From a virus (Duplodnaviria; Caudoviricetes), in IMG/VR virus record IMGVR_UViG_3300044606_000221, positions 1 to 40,537 of that record: DNA of 40,537 bases; one strand, 5' to 3'. Both the position numbers and the translations under genes were made by a program. Within the stretch, counting starts at the first letter, position 1. The number at the start of each line of letters is the position of its first letter. This document shows, piece by piece, positions 3,287-40,007 of this stretch. The notes beneath the pieces are model-generated. The model had not been told where the DNA came from, did not search any database, and saw only the letters and a list, made by a program, of their open reading frames with translations.

Positions 3287-4393
3287 CTACAGTCGCGGCA
3301 TGATGTCGAGGTCCTCGTCCACGGTCCACTCATTCGAGTATCCCGGCACCAGGTTCGGCATCAGGCTCTCGCTGTCCGCGTCGAGCTCGAAAAACCCCTC
3401 CGAGACGGCGGTGATCCTGGTCCAGTTCGCCTCGTCCTCCCCGGGGGAAACACCCGGAACGCTCGTCCCCGTGCACCGGTAGGTATGGCCATCGAGGTAC
3501 GCCACCGCCTGCGGATACACATACGTCTCCGCAGGATTCCAGGGAGGAGCCGACGCTCCGTAGGCCGCAGCCGCCGATGCCGCCGCCGCTACGGCATACT
3601 CCTCCGCCGCATCCTCCGCCGATGCCGCCGCAACTTCCGATGCGGCCGCTCTTTCCGCGCTCAAGGACGCCGCCGCTTCCGATGCGGCCGCTCTTTCCGC
3701 GCTCAAGGACGCCGCCGCTTCCGACGCCTCCGCGGCCTCCTTGAGCAGGTTCACATCACTTATGGTTGTCGCCCGCAAAAGCGTCATCTCTGCGAGGGCA
3801 ACCCCGCGCAGCGCTCCCACGTCGGAGACGGCCTGATCCCTGGATGCCTCCACCGTCGTGACGGCCGTGTCCCGCGCCTCGCCGATCTCACCCAGGGCCG
3901 TGTCCCGCGCCTCCGCCAGTTCATTCCGGATCCCCGCCAGATCCGCCGCGACGGCGTCCAGGCGGTTCTCCGAGTTCCGCAGGAAATCGAGAACCGCATC
4001 AGCATTGATGTCCGTGTCCGCCACGCCCAGCTTCACCGCACGGGAGACCGCCTCCGCCAACTGCTGCGTCTGCATGACAATCCGATCCAGCGCCCGTTCC
4101 ACTTCCTCGGGATTCCACGGCCCCTGGTGGACGAGGTCAAGAGGCTGTACCACCGGCATGGCACGGATGAGTGTCACCTTCCACCCTGTCGGGAGAGGAT
4201 CCCCCACGACGGGATACAGCACCTTTCCGCCGCCGATGGAATAGTTGCTCTCCACAGGCTCCGTCACTCCTTCGGGAGAGGTAACATAGATCTCTACGTC
4301 CTCCGCATCCAGCACGGCGAAGGCGATCTCCCAGTTTCGCGCGACGCCGTTCGCCTCATAAACAACCTTCGTTCCCTGGGACATCACCGTCAT
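3287..4393 (-). CDS. Tail fibre protein (T7 gp17-like N-terminal anchor, Ala-rich coiled coil, C-terminal CBM-like module)
   Basis: N-terminus VYEANGVARNWEIAF...VTLIR...ERALDRIVMQTQQL is typical of podovirus fibre anchors; AAASE repeats; PWNPAETYVYPQAVAYLDGHTYRC...NWTRI resembles CBM5/12. Confidence 0.8.
   Translation of the reverse strand: MTVMSQGTKVVYEANGVARNWEIAFAVLDAEDVEIYVTSPEGVTEPVESNYSIGGGKVLYPVVGDPLPTGWKVTLIRAMPVVQPLDLVHQGPWNPEEVERALDRIVMQTQQLAEAVSRAVKLGVADTDINADAVLDFLRNSENRLDAVAADLAGIRNELAEARDTALGEIGEARDTAVTTVEASRDQAVSDVGALRGVALAEMTLLRATTISDVNLLKEAAEASEAAASLSAERAAASEAAASLSAERAAASEVAAASAEDAAEEYAVAAAASAAAAYGASAPPWNPAETYVYPQAVAYLDGHTYRCTGTSVPGVSPGEDEANWTRITAVSEGFFELDADSESLMPNLVPGYSNEWTVDEDLDIMPRL
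3634..3724. repeat. 42-bp tandem repeat (two full copies plus 7 bp) in the tail fibre
   Basis: cttccgatgcggccgctctttccgcgctcaaggacgccgccg at 3634-3675 and 3676-3717. Confidence 0.95.
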
Positions 4394-4443: not shown

Positions 4444-7400
4444 CTACGGCGCGACGAGCGCCTTTCTCCTTCTCCGTTCCCTCTTCACCCATCCGAGCAG
4501 TGCCGTCGGGTCCCCGGATTGTGCGGCCAAAATCATGCGCTTGATGGCCACCACAGGAATATTTCCACCGAGCACCAACGTGTAGGCCTCGAGAAGAGCG
4601 AGCCCCGAATCGACGTAGTCCCCGCTCATGAACTCCGTCATGACCCGCGCCACGGCGTTCGCCACCGAATCGATCGGCGTTCCTCCCGGCCTCCCGATGG
4701 ACATGGATGCGAAGAGAGAACTCCCGATGATCGGAATGTTCGACACGAGCTGCCCACCCAGACGACGAACCACCTCTCTGCCATCCTCCGGCGGTTCTCC
4801 GTTCGACAGAAGATCCATGAGGATCACGCCGACGACGAGTCCCATGCTTCCGTAGAGCCCCTTCCTAAGCCGCCCGTGCCTGAAGTCGCCCACGATGTCA
4901 TGCACGGCGACACCCCAGATCTTATTCGCCTGGTTTCCGAACACCGTGAGCAGATTCAGCGTCTCGTTCCTGGCCATAAAGCGCGCCAGCTCCTTCGGAG
5001 ACGCAGCCTGCTGTGTGTTGAGCGTCACTCGCTGCGCCCGGTAGCGCGCCTCCTCCGAGGAGGCGCCACGGGCCAGTTCCGCCCTGTAAACCGCGTTCCA
5101 GCCAATGACCCTCGTGATGCCATCCAGAACGGCGAGCGGAACGAACCCGGCGAGTGCAGCCCGCTGCGCAGCGGTCGGTTTCCACGTTCGCTTCAGCTCC
5201 TCCAGCGTTCGGTCCAGCGCGGCCCGCTTAACCTGAGGATCCATTTCCCAGACCCGCCGCATCGTCTTCACGGGATGTGCCAGGAATTCTCCGACGGAAG
5301 CGACGAGGTGCGCCGCTCCGGCATCTCGGAGGTAGTAGATCAAAGCCTGGGGTTGCTTGATAGCCGTGGCGAAATTGTAGGCCAGGGCAGCCACGGCCAG
5401 GTTCGATCTCAGCCGCCGGGCCATCTGGTCTATTGTCTTGAATCCCTTGTAAAACTCCGGATCGGCAATGCGGTTTACGTACTCCTGAACCGCCTCCGCA
5501 GCGTCCCGGCCGAACTTCGCTTCCACCGAGGTTCGGAGACTCGGCATTCCCGGCTCGTCCCTCTCAGCAAAGACGGCGTGCAGTTCCTTCGTCAGCTTCC
5601 TGAAAGCAATGAAGTGTTCCTGCTCCCCCACGGCCCTTCTCCATGTGTAGAGCAGTCCCAGAGTTATCGGCTGTTGGAAGTCCTCGGGGACGTTCTTCCG
5701 CTCGCGGGACCACCCCCTTTCCACGTACTGGCGCTGCAGACCATTCACCCGGAGGGCCTCCCGTCGCGCTCCCTCCAGCCCTTCGTCGAGAGTTTCCCCA
5801 CGCCTGTTCGTCCAGGCTGTCCGGTACATGCGGATGTAGGCCTGCTGTGGAATGAACCCGAGATTGTCGGCGTCGAGCAACGCCTCCTCAAGGCGTTTCC
5901 TGTTTCGTTCGAACTCTTCGATGACTGACACCGCAAAGGCCTTCTCATCCACCGAGAGCACCGATGCCACCCTGGCGGCCAGTTCTTCGGAAACCCCGTT
6001 TCCGTATCTGAGCGCCGCCCGGTTTAGAGGATTGAACCACCCCGCGTAGATATGCAGACATTGATCCAGCGTCAGAGGTTCGACAACGCGCCGTTCCGGG
6101 TCGAACATACCTGCGTCTCCAATGCGCACTTCCGCGAGTTTCTTCTCCGTGATGCCGTACAGCTCCATGCGCTCCCGCATCCAATCCGCCCTTGCCTCCT
6201 CGGCGCGGAGTCGTCCGTCTTCTGCGGCATCCACGTTCTCGACGAAAAGCCTGTGCCAGGCCCCCCGAAAATCCACCGCACCATCAAGCCAGTCGAAGAG
6301 GCGAGAGGGGTTCAGGGTTTCCGCCCGGATTTTGTTGAGCCTCGAATCGGGATTCTTCCCGTCGGGAATCGTTCCGGGAGAAACAAGACGCCATCCCGGC
6401 TCCTTCTCCGTTCTTCCCCCCAAGGCGGCAAGAAGTTCCTCCCGCATAGTGTCGATCCGTTCCCGATCCGCAGCCTCTTTTGCCCGGTACTCTTCCACGC
6501 CCTCCGCCCGAATCTCCATGATCCGCTCGTGCAGCTGTCGCAATTCGTCGATACTCATGTCACTCAGAGAAACCCGGTCGAGCGAGGCAAGATCCTCCTC
6601 ATGCACCGTTTCCACCGCCTCCGGGTTCTCCGCAAGAAAAACCTCCATCTCCCTCCGGATTCGAAGGGTCTCCTCCCTGCGCTGCTTCAGGTCGTATCCG
6701 CGCAGGGTCTCCAGAATCTCCATTTTTCTGGGCCAGCTCACACCGCCCCGGGTGGACATCTCGATCTCCTTCACGAGCGTCCGGACTTCCTTCCGTTCCG
6801 CCTCGTGCAGCCGCCGCAGTCGCCGCAGCTCCGCCATGCGGATACGCTCCCGGAGCACTCCTGCGACGATGCCGCCGGCGCGTCCCGCGAAGAACGCCGT
6901 CCTGGAGTATTTCTGCGCCGCCTTCATCACCGCAGCGAGAGCATCGCTCTCCGTGACGAGCTGTCCGACCTTCGTCCGTCCCGTCACCTCGTCGATCACG
7001 TCACGCACGTTCGCACGGATCCACCTGGCCGCCGACTCCCTCGTCTTCCAAACCAGATCGCGCCAGGCAACCTCCCGCGTCTTTCCGTCCGTCGCTCCGG
7101 CGTCCTCCGTCGCTCCGGCGTCCTCCGTCGCTCCGGCAAAACCCTCCAGCGCTTCCCGAATCAGTCCGGACTCCCGATAGAGCCCCCACAGACGCACCCG
7201 AAACTCCTCAGTCGCCGCCGGATCGCCACGGTCCCTCGCCTCCTCGAAAGCCGTCTGCAGGGTTTTCCGTTCTTCCCGTACCGCCCTTTCCCTGGATTTA
7301 AGGTATGTCTTCGCCCCGGACGTTCCCATGCGCTCAACGATCCATGGCAAAGTCTCTCCCGTCACCTCAAGGACGGGCGGAAGAGGCTGCGGACGAACGG

Positions 7401-25125: not shown

Positions 25126-25652
25126 GCTTCCCCCCTCTTCCGAATCACGGCCGCCGCGTAGAATGCGATCAGCCCGGCGTCGCTCCTACCGTGATGCGGC
25201 GTTCTCGCCCCGTCCGGAACCAGTTCGAGATCCGGGAGCAACTGCTTCGCTCTCATGAGAGACCGCTCCTTCGTATCGCCGCAGACCGTTCCGCTTCCGA
25301 AGACGTACCGCTGCCACGCCCGAGGAGGCACCGTCTGGTACTCGATCCGCAGGCCCGCGAGAATCCCTTTCCAGATTCCGTAGTTCTCGCCGAGCGAAAA
25401 CGCGCTCTTCGCTCCCTGAACGTGCCCGCCCTTCGCCATGTACTGCTGCCGCTCGATCACGGCGAAGGAATCCCCGAGTCCGCGCAGCTCCGCCGCGGCG
25501 GTTTCAGGCTCCCCGCTCCAATCGAAGACGCGGACGACTCCCTTCGTCCGCGGTTCCAGGACGACGACGGCTCCCGTCGCCCCGGGATCGATCCCTATCG
25601 CGTATACCCTTTGAGTCTGGAGCGGCTGTTCACGCATCTTATCCCTGCTCAT
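25122..25652 (-). CDS. RuvC-like Holliday junction resolvase
   Basis: IGIDPGATGA, VIE, GENYG.W.GIL, VPP..WQ, GRSDA.LIA; ATGA overlap with the helicase stop. Confidence 0.85.
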   Translation of the reverse strand: MSRDKMREQPLQTQRVYAIGIDPGATGAVVVLEPRTKGVVRVFDWSGEPETAAAELRGLGDSFAVIERQQYMAKGGHVQGAKSAFSLGENYGIWKGILAGLRIEYQTVPPRAWQRYVFGSGTVCGDTKERSLMRAKQLLPDLELVPDGARTPHHGRSDAGLIAFYAAAVIRKRGEA

Positions 25653-27772
25653 ACCGCGACCAACGATTCCTTGAATTCCCGGATCAGCTTCGACGCCTGC
25701 ATCTTCGTCAGCAGCTCCGGCGCGGCGACGCCGTTCTTCCGGAGAAACCACTTCTGCTTCTCCGTCGCCGGTTCGCCCAACCGCTGGTCTATCAGCTTCG
25801 ATGCCTCGCCGGCCGTGATGTCCGGATCGTATTCGATTCCGGCCCGCCTCAGGAAATCGATCTGCTTTTCCGTCGCCCGGTTCTTCCTCCAGGGGGCCGC
25901 CTTCTTCGAAAGGGATGACCTCCCGTACTGCCGACAATAGTCCTCGCACACGCCCATCGCGTACCCGAGCGGAATCGGCTCCTCCGAAAGCGGGGTCGTC
26001 TCTCCCTCCGGATGGAAGACCAACGGAACGTATCCGTCGCTCGATTTCTTCGCGAAGACGAACGATCCGTCGCCGATCGCGAGCCTGAAGTGCTCTCCGA
26101 TCGCGGCCCACACGAACTTGCTTCGCTCGAACAGGTCGAACTCAGCGGACACCGCATGGAGCTTCGTCGACCGGTCGATCTGCTGCTCTTCGTGCTCCAC
26201 CCTGTCGTACGCCTCACCGAGCGTCTCCCCATTCTTCGGAACGATCCGGGGATCTCCCGCCAGAGTCGCCAAATTGCAGAGTTTATGTCGTCCGGCCGTA
26301 TCGACGAAGTCGATGACGACGCAATCCTGCTTCATCGGAGCCGTTCGCAGTCCCCGCCCGACCATCTGCGTGTACAGGACCGCGCTCTTCGTGGGCCGCG
26401 CGAGCATGATCGCCGACGTATTCGGCGCGTCCCACCCTTCCGTCAGGACATTGCAGTTTGTCACGACGTTCAGCGGTCCCGAATCGAACTCCGACAGGAT
26501 CCTCGAGCGATCGTCTCTGTCCATGTCGCCGTACACCGCTTCCGCTCCGATCCCCTCCGACCGGAAGGCATCCGCCATATCCCGCGAATGCTTCACGTCG
26601 CAGCAAAAGACCACCGCCTTCCGGCCCTTCGCGTGCTCCAGATACCCTTTCGCGACGAGTTCGTTGCGCGCCGGGATGTTGATGATGTCCGACAGTTCGT
26701 TCAGCGCGAAATCTCCTGCCCGCGTATGCACCGAAGAAAGATCCGACTTCGTCGAAACCGATATCCCCCTCGCGTCGCACAGATACCCCGCCCGGATCAT
26801 CGTCGTGATGGATCGTTCGTACACGACCTCCTCGAATACCGCGGAAAGCCCGACCCCGTCGCCCCGGTATCCCGTCGCCGTCACACCAACGAGAAGCTTC
26901 TCCGGATCGCCGGACATGAACCCGAGTTCCGACATAAGCCGGTAATAACTCTCCGCCGTCGCGTGATGACAGTTATGGACTAGAATTCCGTCGGCGAAGT
27001 AGTTGTTATTTCCTTCAACTTCGAGGTTATAGACGAAATCGTTTCCGAAGTTTTCTCCACGATCTCCTTGTTCGAAAACCTCAATACGGTCCACCCGAAG
27101 GAATTCAAAAAGGTTTCGATTTTCTTTCCGCACAGGTGACATGTGTACGACGTGATCGCCTGCACCGATATTTCGGCATGCAACGTACTCGCTCCTTTCG
27201 TAAACGAATATCGGATGCTCTTCAGTGCATACGAGATGCGTTCCGTCGGAAAGGGTCACTTTTACGAGGGGGCGCATCGGCTGCTTAAAAACGCGCACCA
27301 CCTTCCTTTTTTCAAGCGTTTGTTCCTTGTGATCGAAAGAAAAGACTTCGTCTCCCACATCGATCGCTTCTATAGGCATGTCATCGACGAGCGTGCCGGC
27401 AGGGAAACACTCGTCGACGACCATCAGCTTGAAGTCCCTGTCCTTGAGCGCCCGCATCCGCCGTTCCGTCGCGGCCGTCTGAACCGAAGCCACGCACACC
27501 CGGGACGTCAAACCGTCCATCCGCTCCGCCTGAAGAATCCCAACGTCGGCTTCCGGCCAGACCATCCGGATCTTCGTCCTCGCCTGATTCAGCAACTCCT
27601 CCCGATGCGCGAGAACGATCGTCGGGACGTCCATCTCCCTGGCGAGCATTCCGAAGACGAGCGTTTTTCCCGCACCTGTCGGAAGCACCTCCAACTGCCG
27701 CGTGACGCCCCGTTTGCGCGCTTCGAGAACCGCCTTCACCGCCTCTTTCTGGTACGGTCTCGGCTCTATCAT
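25649..27772 (-). CDS. Superfamily 2 DExH helicase containing an intein
   Basis: PTGAGKT, AHREEL, DE-[intein]-CHH, TAT, LTEGWD, QMVGRGLR; C-terminal ATEKQ repeats. Confidence 0.93.
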   Translation of the reverse strand: MIEPRPYQKEAVKAVLEARKRGVTRQLEVLPTGAGKTLVFGMLAREMDVPTIVLAHREELLNQARTKIRMVWPEADVGILQAERMDGLTSRVCVASVQTAATERRMRALKDRDFKLMVVDECFPAGTLVDDMPIEAIDVGDEVFSFDHKEQTLEKRKVVRVFKQPMRPLVKVTLSDGTHLVCTEEHPIFVYERSEYVACRNIGAGDHVVHMSPVRKENRNLFEFLRVDRIEVFEQGDRGENFGNDFVYNLEVEGNNNYFADGILVHNCHHATAESYYRLMSELGFMSGDPEKLLVGVTATGYRGDGVGLSAVFEEVVYERSITTMIRAGYLCDARGISVSTKSDLSSVHTRAGDFALNELSDIINIPARNELVAKGYLEHAKGRKAVVFCCDVKHSRDMADAFRSEGIGAEAVYGDMDRDDRSRILSEFDSGPLNVVTNCNVLTEGWDAPNTSAIMLARPTKSAVLYTQMVGRGLRTAPMKQDCVVIDFVDTAGRHKLCNLATLAGDPRIVPKNGETLGEAYDRVEHEEQQIDRSTKLHAVSAEFDLFERSKFVWAAIGEHFRLAIGDGSFVFAKKSSDGYVPLVFHPEGETTPLSEEPIPLGYAMGVCEDYCRQYGRSSLSKKAAPWRKNRATEKQIDFLRRAGIEYDPDITAGEASKLIDQRLGEPATEKQKWFLRKNGVAAPELLTKMQASKLIREFKESLVAV
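26972..27409 (-). mobile_element. Mini-intein (146 aa) inserted in the DECH box
   Basis: Starts CFPAGT, block B TEEHP, block F VYNLEVEGNNNYFADG, ends VHN followed by a +1 Cys. Confidence 0.93.
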
Positions 27773-32806: not shown

Positions 32807-33856
32807 TCAGAACGTCACGTCAGCAGTATCGTGTTTCTCGCGCGTCTCGTGATTTTCGTGCTTCTCTTCCGAAGCCGAAACCGGAGCGTCGAAGTCGAAG
32901 TCGGCTCCTCCGAAATCGGGCTCCTGCGGCGCGCTCGCCTGTGTTTTCGCCGCTTCTTCCTCGGCCCGCCGTTCCAGATCCTTGTTCAGCGCCTCGATAT
33001 CGCGCATCGTCCAGTCGACCGATCCGCGCCCCTCCGTGATCTTCTTGATCGCGTTAATAGCGTGGTTTTTATTCCCGAGCAGCTTCAGGTACCTGTTCCA
33101 AAGCGCTCCCTTCGTCTGCATCGAGGGAATCGCGTCCGATTCCTCCTCTCTCTCCGCTTCCGACTCGTCGAACTCCGCGTCGACGACTTCTGGGTTGGGC
33201 GAAGGTTCAGGAGCAGGCGAAGGCACAGTCGTCGCCTGCTCCGCCAATAGTTCGGTCGCCAGAGAGGAACTCGTCTCCTGACGCACATCGCGCGGATCGA
33301 CGTCGATCACCTCGTCCGTCGTCTGAAGCCCGCACACCAAGTCATAGGCGTACAGCCGGGCGAAAAAGGCAGCGGCGCGATACCTAAGCATGATGTCTGG
33401 CATTGTCTTCCACTTCGAACCGTTGCGGCCATACCACCCTTCCGCCTTCGCCATTGCGATATCCACCCGCGGACCCTCTACCCGCTCGCCGGTGCACTTC
33501 AGTGTGGTCCACACCGCGCATCCCCGCCCGTCGCCCGTGCCGTTGATCTCGAAGTGCAGGGGCTCGAACTTGCCGGACTGGTCGATCATGGCGATGAGGA
33601 AGGGCGAAGCCCACGAAGGGCGGCCCTGGATGACGTGCAGATTTTGCATGACCATGAAGGGTGAAATCCCGATCCGGTTTGACAGCTCCATGGCCACGAT
33701 CACGTTGGGAATATTTTTCTCCCCCTGGTACTGGACCGGGACCATCGAGCTGGATGCCATGACCTTGGCCACCTGGATGGCCTTCCCGAGATCTCCGCCC
33801 ACCTGGAAGATGGAAATATCCCTGGGCTCAGTCGTCGCAATCGCGTTCTGTTCCAT
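32807..33856 (-). CDS. RecT-like single-strand annealing protein
   Basis: SSMVP..YQG, SPFMVMQNLHVIQGRPSW, SKWKTMPDIMLRYRAAAFFARLY; acidic tail; adjacent to the exonuclease. Confidence 0.82.
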   Translation of the reverse strand: MEQNAIATTEPRDISIFQVGGDLGKAIQVAKVMASSSMVPVQYQGEKNIPNVIVAMELSNRIGISPFMVMQNLHVIQGRPSWASPFLIAMIDQSGKFEPLHFEINGTGDGRGCAVWTTLKCTGERVEGPRVDIAMAKAEGWYGRNGSKWKTMPDIMLRYRAAAFFARLYAYDLVCGLQTTDEVIDVDPRDVRQETSSSLATELLAEQATTVPSPAPEPSPNPEVVDAEFDESEAEREEESDAIPSMQTKGALWNRYLKLLGNKNHAINAIKKITEGRGSVDWTMRDIEALNKDLERRAEEEAAKTQASAPQEPDFGGADFDFDAPVSASEEKHENHETREKHDTADVTF

Positions 33857-33869
33857 TCCTATCCCTCCC

Positions 33870-34682
33870 TTACGCCGCCCACCGGGGTGGCATCAGCTTC
33901 TGAATCTCCACCGGGTACGCGGGCCAGACCCCGGAGTCCATGCACTCCTTGTAGACGCAAAGGTTGCGGAAATACTCCTCGCGGCCGGCGTTCAACATTT
34001 CGATAGAGGCCTCGTAGACAGCCACAGCATACGGAGCCTCCTTCTCCACAGCGATGAAGAGGAACGCGTGCGGAGCATGCCCAAAGGCGGAAGTGCACCC
34101 GTCCCAGTAGTACGCGGACTGGACGTAATACCGGAAATTCCAGGCGGACCGCTCGAAGGCGGCGGGCCGCGCGTCCTCTGTGGATTTCAGGTCCACGACC
34201 ACATACCGCCCGTCCGTCAGATCCTTGACGAAATCCGGGCGGCACTTCGACAAAACACCATCGACCACGGAGGATTCCCAGTAGATCGACTGCTCCGCTT
34301 TGCCTCTCGTGACCAGCGACCGGGCCAGCGGGTGAGCCGCCACCGCCTCCGCCATACCCCGAACCGTTTCCATCACGTCGGGTTTGAGGATTTCCTTCCC
34401 GTTCGCCTCGTACTCGAATTCCGCCCATGCCTCTTTTCCGGCCTTCGTGCGCCGGTCGATCCCCTCCGGGGCGACGCAGTACCGGGCCTCGAATTCCCCC
34501 GGCTCCAAGACGGCGGTGTGAAAGGCCGAACCCAAGAGCATTGCCGGGTTCGGCTCATGCGGAGCCGCCTTGTACGCCATGTAATGCGCCGGACTGCGGG
34601 CGATCTGGTCGAGGTCAGATTTGCTTACACCAGGCCCTTCGTGGTACTCACGATTCGTGAGGTTCTCTATCCTTGCCATCAT
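33870..34682 (-). CDS. RecE-like PD-(D/E)XK exonuclease
   Basis: EYH..PGVSKSDL, GSAFHTAVLEP, KCRPD, VDLKST, Y.VQSAYY. Confidence 0.9.
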   Translation of the reverse strand: MMARIENLTNREYHEGPGVSKSDLDQIARSPAHYMAYKAAPHEPNPAMLLGSAFHTAVLEPGEFEARYCVAPEGIDRRTKAGKEAWAEFEYEANGKEILKPDVMETVRGMAEAVAAHPLARSLVTRGKAEQSIYWESSVVDGVLSKCRPDFVKDLTDGRYVVVDLKSTEDARPAAFERSAWNFRYYVQSAYYWDGCTSAFGHAPHAFLFIAVEKEAPYAVAVYEASIEMLNAGREEYFRNLCVYKECMDSGVWPAYPVEIQKLMPPRWAA

Positions 34683-34744
34683 TTCCGCCCCTTTCGTGCT
34701 ACAATAGGGGCCGGAGGCTGCCACCTCCGGCACTTTTGCCCTTG

Positions 34745-35521: not shown

Positions 35522-35811
35522 GCCACAGACCGCTTGCGCTTGTCGCGCTTCACCGGCTCCGTTCCCGCCTTCCGCTTCCTGTCCCCCGGGCGGCTTTCCC
35601 GGGGGAGGGTAGGGTTTGCATCGGTTTCATTCCCTACGAGTTCGTCGATGCTCACTTTGAGCACCTTCGCAAGACTCCGCAATGCTTCCACATCGGGAGA
35701 TCGTTGACCCGTTTCCCACCGAGTGATTGTCCCCCTTGTAGTGCCCATTTTGGAAGCAAGCTCCACCGTAGTCAGACCGCGATTTTTTCTGATTTCTCGC
35801 AATTTTTCCAT
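35518..35811 (-). CDS. cro: Cro-like XRE HTH regulator
   Basis: LREIRKNRGLTTVELASKMGTTRGTITRWETGQRSPD; divergent from the repressor. Confidence 0.88.
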   Translation of the reverse strand: MEKLREIRKNRGLTTVELASKMGTTRGTITRWETGQRSPDVEALRSLAKVLKVSIDELVGNETDANPTLPRESRPGDRKRKAGTEPVKRDKRKRSVA

Positions 35812-35837
35812 TTCGTCACCCCCCTTCTGAGAGGCAT

Positions 35838-35944
35838 TTTACGCTTCCAATTCGGAAGCGTAAATAGGACCTTAGGCCCATTTTTCCAATATGGAAGCAA
35901 CTTATTTCCATATTGGGGTCTTTACTTCTGCTTCCGATATGGAA
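35838..35944. promoter_or_regulatory. Genetic switch operators (TTCC-N5-GGAA)
   Basis: tttacgcttcc-aattc-ggaagcgtaaa (35838-35864), ttcc-aatat-ggaa (35884-35896), degenerate ttcc-atatt-gggg (35906-35918), ttcc-gatat-ggaa (35932-35944). Confidence 0.8.
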
Positions 35945-35970
35945 CAATTGAGTACGCGGGAGGGATGGAG

Positions 35971-36732
35971 ATGGAGCAGATTGGCTCGCGTATCGCAACA
36001 GCACGCGCACTTGCTGGGCTAACTCAGACAGAATTGGCAACATTGCTGGGAGTCACCAGGGGAACCATTACAAGATGGGAAAAGGGATCTCGAAATCCGA
36101 GCGATGAAGATAAGCATCGCATCGCCAAAGCCCTCAACACCACCGTGGCCTACCTCATGGGTGAGACGAACGAACCGGTGCCGAAAAAAGTCAGCGATGG
36201 TCACGAACAGAAATTAATGACAGACGAGCATGAGAGTGGTAAACAAGCAGAAATGGTTCCGAAAAAGATTCCCGGAGGGCTCTGGCAGATGGGGAATATT
36301 TATCTCGTACCAAGACTGAGCCCGGAATATTCGCCACATTGCGGCGGAACAGGAATCGCCTTCGACGTAAGCGCTCAGACGGAAGAAGGGGAATACGAGC
36401 CCATCGCCGCACCAATCCTCGGCCCCATTGACCCGATGAATCCGCCTCGGGCCTTCAGAGTTGATGGCACCTCGGTCACGGACTATGGGATTCCACCTGA
36501 TTCATGGATCATCGTGAATCCTGCCATAGAACCTGTCACTGGAAATCTCGCACTCGTTGAAATCGGAGGAAGCCCGGTCATCAAGAAAATCTATATTCGA
36601 CCTGACGGCATTGCGCTCCGCTCTTCAAACGGAGAGGAGTATTTCGTGGATCGCGAATCAATGGAAGTGGGCTTCGTGCGGATATGCGGGAAAATCGTTC
36701 GTGCAGACATGGAGTTGAATCACAGGCCGTGA
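35971..36732 (+). CDS. cI: CI-like repressor (XRE HTH plus S24 peptidase domain)
   Basis: IATARALAGLTQTELA...TITRWEKG; C-terminal RVDGTSV..IKKI..ICGKIV; GGGAGG RBS before ATG 35971 (35965 is an alternative start). Confidence 0.9.
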   Translation: MEQIGSRIATARALAGLTQTELATLLGVTRGTITRWEKGSRNPSDEDKHRIAKALNTTVAYLMGETNEPVPKKVSDGHEQKLMTDEHESGKQAEMVPKKIPGGLWQMGNIYLVPRLSPEYSPHCGGTGIAFDVSAQTEEGEYEPIAAPILGPIDPMNPPRAFRVDGTSVTDYGIPPDSWIIVNPAIEPVTGNLALVEIGGSPVIKKIYIRPDGIALRSSNGEEYFVDRESMEVGFVRICGKIVRADMELNHRP

Positions 36733-36768
36733 GGAAAGACATACGGCACACAAGAGAAGGGGCTGAAA

Positions 36769-38082
36769 ATGCTAACTCTTCGACACCGCGTGAAGAAACG
36801 TTTATGGCTTGCATTCGTATTCCTGCCGGTGTTTTTCCTGCAATACGAAACGTGCTATGCCACGTCACCAGCGGACATTTTCAAGAAATGCTCGAAGTCG
36901 ATCGTTACAGTGCTGGCTCTCGATGACAAAAGAGTAATTTGCAGCCAGGCTTCCGGCTTCTTCTTCGACGAATCAGGCGCTGTCCTCACAAATTTTCACG
37001 TAATAGACGGGTACCCAAATCTGGTGATTAAACTCAGCGACGGCACGTCGCACAATGTGACAAAGATCTTGGCCCAACATCCGGACCTTGACCTTGCAAT
37101 AGTAGCGACGGCCACTCCGAAAGAAAAATCGATTCCCCTGGCCATTGCCGATCATTTACCCGACATCGGAAGCAATGTCAGCGTTATAGGAACCCCGAGA
37201 GGTTTTTCTCTGACTCTGTCCACAGGGATTCTGTCGGGAAAGAGAAAAATCGACAACTTCGACTTCATCCAAACGACAGCTCCTGTTTCTCCAGGATCAA
37301 GTGGAAGCCCTGTTTTCGATGAAAACGGAAAAATCCTCGGCATGATAGCCTTCAACATAAAAGAAAGCCAAAATCTCAACTTAGCAATATGCTACAATGA
37401 AATCAGAAATGCAATACACAATCGTCCTTTCATACGAGATACCCTGGACAGATACGGACCTATCCCAAGTGGATACGAAATTGCGCGTCCTGGGGATACT
37501 ATTTTTTCGGAAGACAGAACCAAAACCGAGCCAGCCTTCTGCCTCGACGAACCCATAAACAGCACAATGCCCGGAGCATACGGAATCCATTTCAATTTCT
37601 CCATAGATCCCGGCGTTCTGCGGTACGTCCATGAGAACGACACCTTTGTTGTTTTCGCGTCATCCTCAGCAAAAGCAACCTTCATGGGCGGAAGCGTCAT
37701 CTCTGAAAACGATACCGTAGGAATTTTTTTCCGAAAGAGTGACATTGAAAAGCTCAGCTGGTTCGTTGACAACACCGAATGGAACGGTGGAATCCAGACA
37801 GTATGGACCCGTGACTTAAAACCGGAGGAGTATGGAAAAATCAGAAAATGTATCGTGCCCATAAAAGGAACGAAAACCACCATATTCTCAATAAAATATG
37901 ACGGATATAAATTCGGCACAATTGACTTTTCAAAAGAAATAAGAACAGGAGAATCGCTAGAGGCAAAAAATATATCTATTTTAACAGAAGCAAAGACAGA
38001 TATAGCAGCAAAGATTGACAATAAAACAATAGATATTATTCAAGTATTCGAGGATGGGATTATATACAAATGGACACAATAA
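36769..38082 (+). CDS. Secreted trypsin-like (S1C/HtrA-type) serine protease with an unrecognised C-terminal domain
   Basis: N-terminal signal or anchor; catalytic triad contexts TNFHVI, DLAIV, GSSGSP; AT-rich relative to the genome. Confidence 0.85.
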   Translation: MLTLRHRVKKRLWLAFVFLPVFFLQYETCYATSPADIFKKCSKSIVTVLALDDKRVICSQASGFFFDESGAVLTNFHVIDGYPNLVIKLSDGTSHNVTKILAQHPDLDLAIVATATPKEKSIPLAIADHLPDIGSNVSVIGTPRGFSLTLSTGILSGKRKIDNFDFIQTTAPVSPGSSGSPVFDENGKILGMIAFNIKESQNLNLAICYNEIRNAIHNRPFIRDTLDRYGPIPSGYEIARPGDTIFSEDRTKTEPAFCLDEPINSTMPGAYGIHFNFSIDPGVLRYVHENDTFVVFASSSAKATFMGGSVISENDTVGIFFRKSDIEKLSWFVDNTEWNGGIQTVWTRDLKPEEYGKIRKCIVPIKGTKTTIFSIKYDGYKFGTIDFSKEIRTGESLEAKNISILTEAKTDIAAKIDNKTIDIIQVFEDGIIYKWTQ

Positions 38083-38330
38083 CGACCAAGCAACGCAGGC
38101 TCCGCATAGCAATATTTTCCCTCACCTTCCTCCTGGTCTTTCTAGGTGGAGCCGCTTGTGCTTATCTCGGTGGATATCTTCTTTTCTATGAAGATTTCAG
38201 CGGGATTCGTCCTCGAAAACCTTTCACACCCAACGAATTCGAACTGAGGCGATACCGGAGTGAAATAGAAGAATACATCACGGACTTTGAGCCTTCCTAT
38301 GAGGGATGGAAACTAGAGGGTGCATCATGA
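38070..38330 (+). CDS. Small membrane protein whose 3' end contains the CRISPR-like repeat
   Basis: 86 aa, one TM segment; overlaps the protease stop and the integrase start (ATGA); FEPSYEGWK is the translated repeat. Confidence 0.6.
   Translation: MDTITTKQRRLRIAIFSLTFLLVFLGGAACAYLGGYLLFYEDFSGIRPRKPFTPNEFELRRYRSEIEEYITDFEPSYEGWKLEGAS
38284..38313 (+). CRISPR. Solitary CRISPR direct repeat (type I-B-like 30-mer), no array
   Basis: ACTTTGAGCCTTCCTATGAGGGATGGAAAC fits the GTTTTGAGCCT-CCTAT-AGG-AT-GAAAC repeat family as recalled, with a small CCT-ATG-AGG hairpin and a GAAAC end. Confidence 0.8.
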
Positions 38331-39928
38331 TTCCCGCATATTCCTACGCGAGAGATTCGTCTCAAATGCAGGCGGACAAAGGGCTTTCCATCCCCGCACA
38401 GATCAACGAAATCCGGAGGTACGCGAAGGCGAACGGCTACGAAATTCTCGAGCAGTTCGTGGATGACGCGTACTCAGGTACAACGGACGAGAGGCCTGCC
38501 TTTCAGCGCATGCTCTCGCTCGTCCGTTCCAGGCAATGCCCCGCCAAGGCCATCATCACCTGGAAAAGCGACCGGATCGCCAGATCTGTCGAACAGGCCT
38601 CCGCATTTCGTGGGCTCCTCCGTCGCCAAGGAATCGATCTCGTCACCGTGGCGGAGCCGATGGTCGAAGGTCCGGTGGGAGCCATCGTGAATGCCATACT
38701 GGATTCGGTGAACGAGTTCTATTCGCTGCGGCTCGCCGAGGATTCCCTCCGCGGCGCGAAGGAATCCGCCTCGCGTGGATTCGCCCAGGGCGGAACTCCG
38801 CCTTTCGGCATGAAGAAGATCCCCGTTGAGAACGACAAAGGGGTTGTCCAGATGAAGTACGCGCCGGATCCGGAGACGGCGCCTGTTGTCAGCCGGATCT
38901 ACGCGGAATATGCAAAGGGGACCTCGATGATGGACGTTGCGAACGCCCTCAACGCCGACGGCGTGCCAACCCCGCGCGGCGGCAGATGGAATAGCACGCA
39001 AATTCACAACATCCTAGCCAAGCACCAGCTCGTCTATCTCGGGCACCTCGTCTACAACCGCACCCGTCTTCCCAAGAGAGGCGGAACCAGCATCCATAAG
39101 AGCAAAGAACAGTGGGTGGTTTCCGAGAATGCGCACGAACCGATCATCACGAAAGAGATGGCTGATGCGGCAAACAGAGTTCGCTCCGAACGTCCGAAAT
39201 ACTGGAACATCAATGCCAATTGCAGAAAAAGCGAGCCACTGCTCCTGCGTGGGCTGGTTATGTGTGGAATTTGCGGTGCCCCCTACTACTCGTCCTGGGG
39301 CGGAAAGAGCAACCAGGAGCCGATACGGTACTACAGTTGCGGCGGCGGGAAATTGGCACGGCTAAAGGGGCGGGGAGATCCGAAGTGTCGCAACACCTGG
39401 ATTCGTGCGAAAGAACTGGACCGGGTCATCCTGGAAGCGGCGGAGAAAAAGGTAATCCGTCCGGACTTCTGGGAAAAGCTCGCCGCAGTGCTCGACACCG
39501 AACGGGGCACTCTTGCCGAAGGGCAGCACCACCGGGCCGGAAAGATCCGAAAAGAACTGGTTGTCCTGCGGGAACGACGTTCCCGCATCATCGACGCCAT
39601 CGCGGACGGTGTCATCCGCTCGATCGACGCCAAGGCGAAGATGGACTCGTTGAATGCCGCAATTTCTGAATACGAAACAGCCCTTGAGGATCTCATGATG
39701 CCCGTGTCCTCACAGCGGAGCGAAGACCTGAAAAGAATTCTGGACCTCTCCGACGCGATCCAGGATCCCGGCGTCCTTCAGGCAATCTGCCTCACCATGA
39801 TCAGGCAGGTGATGATATTCCCGGATCGAGTCGAACTGGACTACAAGGTGCTCTTCAAACCGGAAACCTTGAAAGTGCCTCGCTCGCAAGGGAAAAGAGG
39901 CGGCTCAAGAATTTGCGGGAACGTATAA
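38327..39928 (+). CDS. int: Large serine recombinase (phage integrase)
   Basis: YARDSS catalytic Ser, SG...RP.F, DRIAR; recombinase domain PPFG; Zn ribbon CGICG/YYSC/C; coiled coil. An in-frame ATG at 38306 is an alternative start. Confidence 0.96.
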   Translation: MIPAYSYARDSSQMQADKGLSIPAQINEIRRYAKANGYEILEQFVDDAYSGTTDERPAFQRMLSLVRSRQCPAKAIITWKSDRIARSVEQASAFRGLLRRQGIDLVTVAEPMVEGPVGAIVNAILDSVNEFYSLRLAEDSLRGAKESASRGFAQGGTPPFGMKKIPVENDKGVVQMKYAPDPETAPVVSRIYAEYAKGTSMMDVANALNADGVPTPRGGRWNSTQIHNILAKHQLVYLGHLVYNRTRLPKRGGTSIHKSKEQWVVSENAHEPIITKEMADAANRVRSERPKYWNINANCRKSEPLLLRGLVMCGICGAPYYSSWGGKSNQEPIRYYSCGGGKLARLKGRGDPKCRNTWIRAKELDRVILEAAEKKVIRPDFWEKLAAVLDTERGTLAEGQHHRAGKIRKELVVLRERRSRIIDAIADGVIRSIDAKAKMDSLNAAISEYETALEDLMMPVSSQRSEDLKRILDLSDAIQDPGVLQAICLTMIRQVMIFPDRVELDYKVLFKPETLKVPRSQGKRGGSRICGNV

Positions 39929-39963
39929 GCATGTCGGGTCACATGTTTATATGTTCCCGCAAA
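39912..39963. other. Putative attP site
   Basis: 23-bp arms tttgcgggaacgtataagcatgt / acatgtttatatgttcccgcaaa (21/23 inverted match) around cgggtc, central GG at 39937-39938; overlaps the int stop codon. Confidence 0.8.
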
Positions 39964-40007
39964 GATACAGACTACGCAGTTTTTTGAGGCGGTCTTTTTG
40001 GGAATGA

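Follow-up and report, generated by a model that had tools for sequence, protein, structure and literature searches.

A lone CRISPR repeat before a phage integrase gene as a probable scar of recombination with a host array

Why should a temperate phage carry a single CRISPR repeat directly in front of its integrase gene? The window analysed here, a complete virus record of 40,537 nt, encodes cro/cI, a trypsin-like protease, a small open reading frame (ORF) and a large serine integrase (Int). An earlier note, made from the letters of this DNA, had reported one repeat just before the integrase gene and had proposed that it was wired into the integrase leader, where host CRISPR proteins would act on it. 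The features of the run are listed here.

35965..36732, + strand: cI-like repressor (HTH_3 and S24; Pfam)
36769..38082, + strand: trypsin-like protease, upstream in the same gene run (Pfam)
38070..38330, + strand: truncated small gene of 86 aa, comprising 72 family residues and 14 read through the repeat
38284..38313, + strand: solitary CRISPR repeat-like 30-mer (Rfam, mismatch search, array comparison, sister allele)
38327..39928, + strand: large serine integrase (Resolvase, Recombinase and Zn ribbon; Pfam)

Elsewhere in the window, the helicase gene (25649-27772) contains an intein-like segment.

The repeat and the small gene that holds it

The repeat was confirmed at 38284-38313 on the plus strand, with 13 nt (38314-38326) between its 3′ end and the integrase ATG at 38327. 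Its 3′ 21 nt occur only once in the window at up to three mismatches and were not recovered in 100 shuffles. The Rfam match, to CRISPR-DR2 (RF01315), scores 29.1 bits with an E value of 0.0054, which is under the gathering score of 37. A search against real repeats found a close match in Synergistota arrays: 9 of 251 genomes hold arrays within three mismatches of the segment 38286-38313, the nearest repeats (in genomes G014, G127 and G238) differ from it at 2 of 28 positions, and the 3′ 22 nt are identical to the array repeats of a Synergistales genome. The assignment to 30-nt type I-B-associated repeats, as proposed in the note, is borne out by the G127/G238 repeat, identical at 26/28 positions, and by the G127 arrays, which adjoin I-B cas genes. 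The sense orientation holds as well, as the spacers of the G127 array, read the same way, map to protospacers that share a 5′ motif. The exact 28-mer occurs neither in the viral contigs nor in the JGI metagenomes, and no exact donor repeat was found in the Synergistota genomes. Only these 28 nt are demonstrably foreign; 38284-38285 are common to a repeat-free sister allele described below.

No second repeat was found at spacer distance in the window, as a viral mini-array would require, and a degenerate upstream candidate at that distance (5/8 handle letters, by eye) was rejected. No cas family matched any of the 22 ORFs compared with Pfam or the 12 compared with PHROGs, of 225 mechanical ORFs. 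The absence of a neighbouring repeat and of a cas gene, the latter for the scanned ORFs, therefore stands, and the locus shares with solitary repeat units (SRUs) a single repeat, no nearby second copy and no cas gene in those ORFs. It differs from them in that its position is not intergenic. The repeat does not occupy a free leader, but lies within the 3′-terminal part of ORF 38070-38330; the stop codon of this ORF overlaps the integrase ATG. According to passages of PMC10651486, SRUFinder treats such intragenic matches as probable false positives.

The low Rfam score might be taken to signal a chance likeness, and the data, which are contigs only with no raw reads, could in principle contain an assembly chimera formed through a host spacer-repeat-spacer path. 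Either explanation is very improbable in our judgement. Contigs of X1 and X5, two runs from two studies, bridge both repeat junctions with 0 differences, which argues against an assembly artefact; the window's own assembly has the same junctions, depth is flat across the element, and the identity of the 3′ 22 nt to real array repeats speaks against chance. Contigs of 7 of the 12 listed runs entered this comparison (X2-X4, X10 and X12 were left out): that of X8 bridges the left repeat edge only, those of X7 do not cover the element, and that of X9 departs from the window at 38098.

The small gene belongs to a conserved family. A search with the ORF recovered no protein of near length other than itself, and none among longer ones; a full library scan then found the family, and the ESM Atlas gave unnamed clusters only. 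Its four relatives, 102-120 aa in length, align to the first 72 residues and then carry ~41 more, compared with 14 in the window, where the copy diverges from all of them at the repeat. Some 41 terminal codons of the gene are missing in the window. Of the remaining two read-through frames, one stops earlier and the other runs into int. None of three genomic homologues of the small gene has a repeat beside it.

The attachment site and the integrase relatives

A repeat that adjoins an integrase gene could serve integration into the CRISPR arrays of the host, as an attachment site or as a stretch of homology. Such a role has been proposed for SRUs in passages of PMC8616872, and a repeat-integrating phage is described in part of bioRxiv 2020.10.09.333658. 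In the present phage, the following features locate the site.

39912..39963, + strand: attP, a 52-nt imperfect inverted repeat over the int end, its 23-nt arms 91% complementary
39937..39987, + strand: replacement 3′ end of the host hydro-lyase gene (12/16 residues identical)

In a contig of X5, the window sequence is joined at 39937 to foreign DNA, and of the eight genomes in the G127 family only G238 contains this foreign half exactly. An 11-nt core (39937-39947) is common to attP and the host attB, which forms the 3′ terminus of a gene for a putative hydro-lyase (locus L058, G238:C53). The phage restores the last 16 residues of this target; the serine-integrase attP/attB pair is new, its core known. 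Since the crossover falls near 39937, downstream of int, and attB lies in the putative hydro-lyase gene, the repeat is not the attachment site. Among the loose ends listed, none at the repeat leads into an array. Integration into arrays by way of the repeat, largely refuted for the integrase, is accordingly a far-fetched account of its presence.

Both alleles of the locus use this site. The X6 int contig continues into DNA that matches G238 downstream of the target gene at 29/30 letters, which places the repeat-free phage in the same attB, and the X5 junction has the same right-end variants as the X1 contig, which bears the repeat; the repeat-bearing allele therefore integrates too. The first int codons (38331-38343) resemble an attP arm (39909-39921) over 13 nt with 92% complementarity, possibly as an Int-binding half-site for autoregulation.

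Conservation of the repeat before related integrases, a check that the earlier note had named, was not observed. Homologues of the integrase (27-42% identity; 9 of 251 Synergistota genomes) align from the start at 38327, and a scan of 171-1500 nt upstream of int found repeat-like sequence in 0 of 9 loci, the best upstream match having 7-10 mismatches in the repeat's 3′ 22 nt. The viral contigs yielded no integrase relatives, and among annotated phages neither the region nor a G127 array was matched. The repeat is also absent from the sister allele, whose integrase is about 97-98% identical and which sits at the same attB, and in the window the repeat truncates a conserved gene. These comparisons speak against the claim that evolution wired the repeat into the integrase leader.

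The repeat-free allele and the origin of the repeat

The sister phage is represented in X6 and X11, both of one study, and its int differs from that of the window at 13/582 and 27/824 nt, respectively. A contig of X6 equals the window over 38190-38285 (96 nt, 0 differences) and then continues with other letters, which keep the frame of ORF 38070 and fit the C-terminal part of the family (read by eye). Contigs of X6 and X11 carry 23 and 162 other letters before they rejoin the window, precisely at 38314. Pieced together from these separate short contigs, with no contig spanning the whole, the repeat-free allele has at least ~140 nt where the window has the 28 nt of the repeat, a lower bound taken from the 162-letter loose end; the replaced DNA includes the small-gene tail and the DNA before the int ribosome-binding site (RBS). 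The right junction (38313/38314) is the exact 3′ end of the repeat and has no foreign spacer letters, and the left junction falls 2 nt inside a typical GT-starting repeat. A TGA before 38314 in the sister allele had been read as the small-gene stop, a reading that was dropped. The loose end of X6/X11 also has a −10-like hexamer across the junction before 38314, and the repeat patch may have removed an int promoter. In the mosaic relatives X1 and X5, the cro/cI segment (window 35672-36152) and the right end (beyond 40237) are swapped, and the protease-small gene-repeat-int block is identical.

An exact repeat end that is joined at once to ancestral phage DNA looks like a repeat-spacer boundary, and the boundary is joined exactly to DNA present in the repeat-free allele. 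We therefore favor, as probable if by no means certain on comparisons of sequence, a reading in which the repeat did not evolve as an integrase switch but is a scar, left behind when the phage recombined with the CRISPR array of a host. The following features bear on it.

32807..33856, − strand: RecT-like ssDNA annealing protein, candidate recombination agent (E 1.5e-79)
33870..34733, − strand: RecE/exonuclease VIII-like nuclease, candidate recombination partner (E 1.2e-95)
38247..38285, + strand: candidate upstream protospacer A (CTG 37 nt and TGA 36 nt before 38284)
38314..38349, + strand: candidate downstream protospacer B (sister homology resumes exactly at 38314)
5853..5888, − strand: protospacer of a G127 type I-B array spacer (34/36), 5′ flank TTG

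RecE/RecT-type pairs recombine short homologies, and type I systems read a repeat end in the PAM position as self. In the proposed sequence of events, a host would have held a spacer starting at 38314 beside a repeat, and the attack guided by this spacer would have cost the phage its PAM-side DNA. The RecE and RecT proteins of the phage would have used that spacer, perhaps together with a second one ending near 38283, to anneal the broken genome to the array, and the repeat would have been copied into the phage. The 5′ flank of the protospacer would then have become a repeat end, in which case it would be read as self and targeting by that spacer would end. Because the stop of the read-through frame overlaps the int ATG, int would stay translated, and any cutting of the int message by Cas6 would be a by-product of the event, not its origin. 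Recombination between spacers and phage DNA by phage recombinases is described in part of bioRxiv 2020.10.09.333658. Several points weigh against such a scar: the left junction, 2 nt inside the repeat, is not expected from a clean two-spacer exchange; the TGA that flanks side B does not fit the nearest system, that of G127; and matching spacers and an exact donor repeat were not found in the arrays and genomes searched.

The host genome, G238, has I-G, I-E and III-A loci, with cas6 in the III-A locus and several cas1 loci, and gave no match to Cas8b. G127, a relative in the host family, carries a full I-B set (cas6, cas8b, cas7, cas5, cas3, cas4 and cas1b) beside arrays of the same repeat, and the 34/36 match of its spacer indicates that a CRISPR family of the G127 type targets the phage or a close relative. 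For the PAM, 650 spacers were compared with 188 loci and the window, which gave 8 matches at up to 7 mismatches. The four matches at up to 3 mismatches have the 5′ flanks CTG, CTA, TTG and TTG; the four weaker ones have CTC, CAA, GCA and CGG. On side A, the CTG 37 nt upstream falls within the range of spacer lengths (35-39 nt; n=142 spacers) and is the flank at a perfect G127 protospacer; the chance of such a flank is 9.5% for YTG and 31% for YTN. Candidate B, in ancestral phage DNA, holds the int RBS (38315-38322) and start codon, and the sister allele has TGA before it, unlike the four good G127 flanks. Among 13 repeats with this 3′ end, the rows in supplementary file 2 of Vink et al. (PMC8482600) give TCA, TTA, TTG, TTn and TnA motifs, with TnA for 4/13 and TTA for a repeat among the closest, and there is no TGA row among them. 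The sister TGA would fit the TnA listed for related repeats, which makes the PAM evidence mixed.

None of the 650 spacers matches the repeat flanks, and spacer B was found in 0 of 268 genomes and in neither the viral nor the metagenome scans, a search in which few host strains were sampled. The longest run for B, in 409,629 bases of host loci, is 10 nt and falls largely within IS3 coding sequence. The int leader also shows a likeness to the array of G074; as this lies in the coding sequence of an IS3 transposase, it was set aside as probably due to chance. Relatives of the capsid and RecT genes (82 loci) gave no added protospacer and no solitary repeat.

The CRISPR loci showed further features. 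The G074 array (L062, 170 repeats) contains three IS3-type insertions, two of which split repeats. In the G127 I-B locus (L060, G127:C2), cas8b, cas7, cas5 and cas3 are on the strand opposite cas6, cas4 and cas1; the match to cas8b is interrupted by one stop. Long inserts in a G127 array (L059, ~3396-3639 and ~4561-4790) match a multi-copy G238 element. A mobile element in G238:C38 (L057/L063, ~4800-32200), matched by several G127 spacers, carries a two-repeat mini-array and also, ~1.6 kb beyond a tyrosine integrase, a solitary degenerate repeat. Two other viral contigs, L001 (1753-1782) and L002 (minus strand), hold solitary repeats of the family found in the window, and the full repeat of L002 overlaps the start of a replication-type gene.

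A different enzymology could produce similar junctions. Cas1-Cas2 may have joined a phage DNA end at 38314 to the spacer-side edge of a repeat, either at a half-site or with the whole genome as a giant spacer, and imprecise release near the 5′ end of the repeat would have followed. This course gives one exact and one inexact junction, as observed, and needs no PAM, which fits the failure of the side-B flank; the host, moreover, has several cas1 loci. The integration of long DNA ends in cells is, however, extrapolation, and the product and that of spacer recombination look alike by sequence alone. We give this route little weight.

The events may also have run in the opposite order. Two 5-nt blocks of the repeat recur in the sister letters just before 38314, a likeness that an anchored null reached in 61, 183 and 358 of 4,000 trials under three scorings (1.5-9%; observed scores by hand) and that arose in 156 of 80,614 cases under a criterion chosen after seeing the data. 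It could reflect chance, extra pairing that aided the event, or a decayed ancestral repeat, and the last of these allows the opposite order. In that history, which would favor the earlier note, the repeat was an ancestral cis-regulator of the int leader, at which Cas6 and Cascade would cut and mask the int message and so tune integration; a later deletion in the window lineage, with its end point 2 nt into the repeat, would have removed the gene tail, and in the sister lineage the repeat would have decayed. This history would account for a left junction that is imprecise and for sister letters that partly resemble the repeat, the handle and RBS geometry fits, and the allele is identical across two studies in phages with different cI and right ends. 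The cost is two small deletions and several substitutions within ~30 nt, beside 96 nt with 0 differences, when int is only 2-3% diverged. With no repeat before any of the 9 homologues and a repeat-free phage in the same site, we consider an ancestral regulator unlikely.

Possible roles of the repeat and comparison with known systems

Whatever its origin, the repeat may yield an RNA.

38306..38313, + strand: predicted 8-nt 5′ handle if Cas6 cuts (sequence geometry)

As geometry, the cleavage that had been predicted is reproduced: Cas6, cutting 8 nt from the 3′ end, would place the new 5′ end at 38306, and the ~36 nt that follow the handle would span the RBS and start codon. The handle also contains an in-frame upstream ATG for int, probably unused. 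The repeat and that of G127 have the same weak predicted hairpin, with unremarkable folding z-scores. If such a cleaved RNA is formed, it might reduce Int levels, titrate Cas proteins or serve as a guide against sister phages that lack the repeat.

The second of these roles is that of an RNA anti-CRISPR (Racr): the lysogeny transcript, cut by Cas6, would release a handle RNA that soaks up Cas5 and Cas7, and selection could have kept it whatever the origin of the insert. The single viral repeat, its intact 3′ handle, the hairpin shared with G127 and the targeting of the phage by a related I-B system all accord with this role, and Racr activity is dose-dependent according to passages of PMC10651486. 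The tested Racrs in those passages were, however, chosen with a promoter within 250 bp, and a weak consensus scan over 35700-38500 (2 found, 3.1 expected) gave no promoter-like site on the plus strand; the repeat is, moreover, inside an ORF and absent from the sister phage. A selected Racr is, on balance, a rather improbable explanation. An escape scar could also have been turned into both switch and weapon. Cas6 would cut at 38306, and Cascade on the handle and the int RBS and start would lower Int while host CRISPR is active; the same RNA would guide Cascade against repeat-free competitors for attB, with the carrier protected by its repeat end. This extension is speculative, and we think it doubtful.

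The passages cited here on single phage repeats address their role, not their source. Here a close sister allele lets the states preceding and following the event be compared base by base. The two phages share a host site, and the pair is suited to tests of the end of targeting, of integrase cost or tuning, and of a guide or decoy role. The case also cautions against reading every lone repeat beside an integrase as a regulator or as a Racr. In the literature, covered as titles and the starts of abstracts with limited subscription coverage, we found no repeat in an integrase leader and no repeat patch as a product of phage escape.

Like the SRUs and Racrs in passages of Camara-Wilpert et al. 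2023 (PMC10651486; also Faure et al. 2019, as cited), the phage has one host-type viral repeat with an intact handle and no cas gene found. Unlike them, its repeat is intragenic, has no promoter of its own that we found and replaced coding DNA, and inhibition is only conjectural here. Viral mini-arrays against related viruses (in part of PMC11656645) and Cracr regulatory RNAs (in part of bioRxiv 2024.10.29.618823) offer another parallel, in that the repeat and the spacer-length DNA behind it, which matches a sister phage, could serve as a guide; in the window there is no second repeat, and the guide would consist of int-leader DNA of the phage itself, with no long match in the host loci examined. 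The spacer-protospacer recombination of Varble et al. 2019, as described in part of bioRxiv 2020.10.09.333658, similarly involves a repeat joined exactly to phage DNA and a phage-encoded short-homology recombinase pair. The outcome there is transduction of a CRISPR element, whereas here, with the spacer not found, a single repeat beside a deletion is fixed in an integration-competent phage. Finally, Streptococcus phage AP1.1, in the same partial account, is temperate, integrates into CRISPR repeats and can gain repeat DNA near its integration functions; in the window phage, by contrast, attP is separate from the repeat and attB lies in a metabolic gene.
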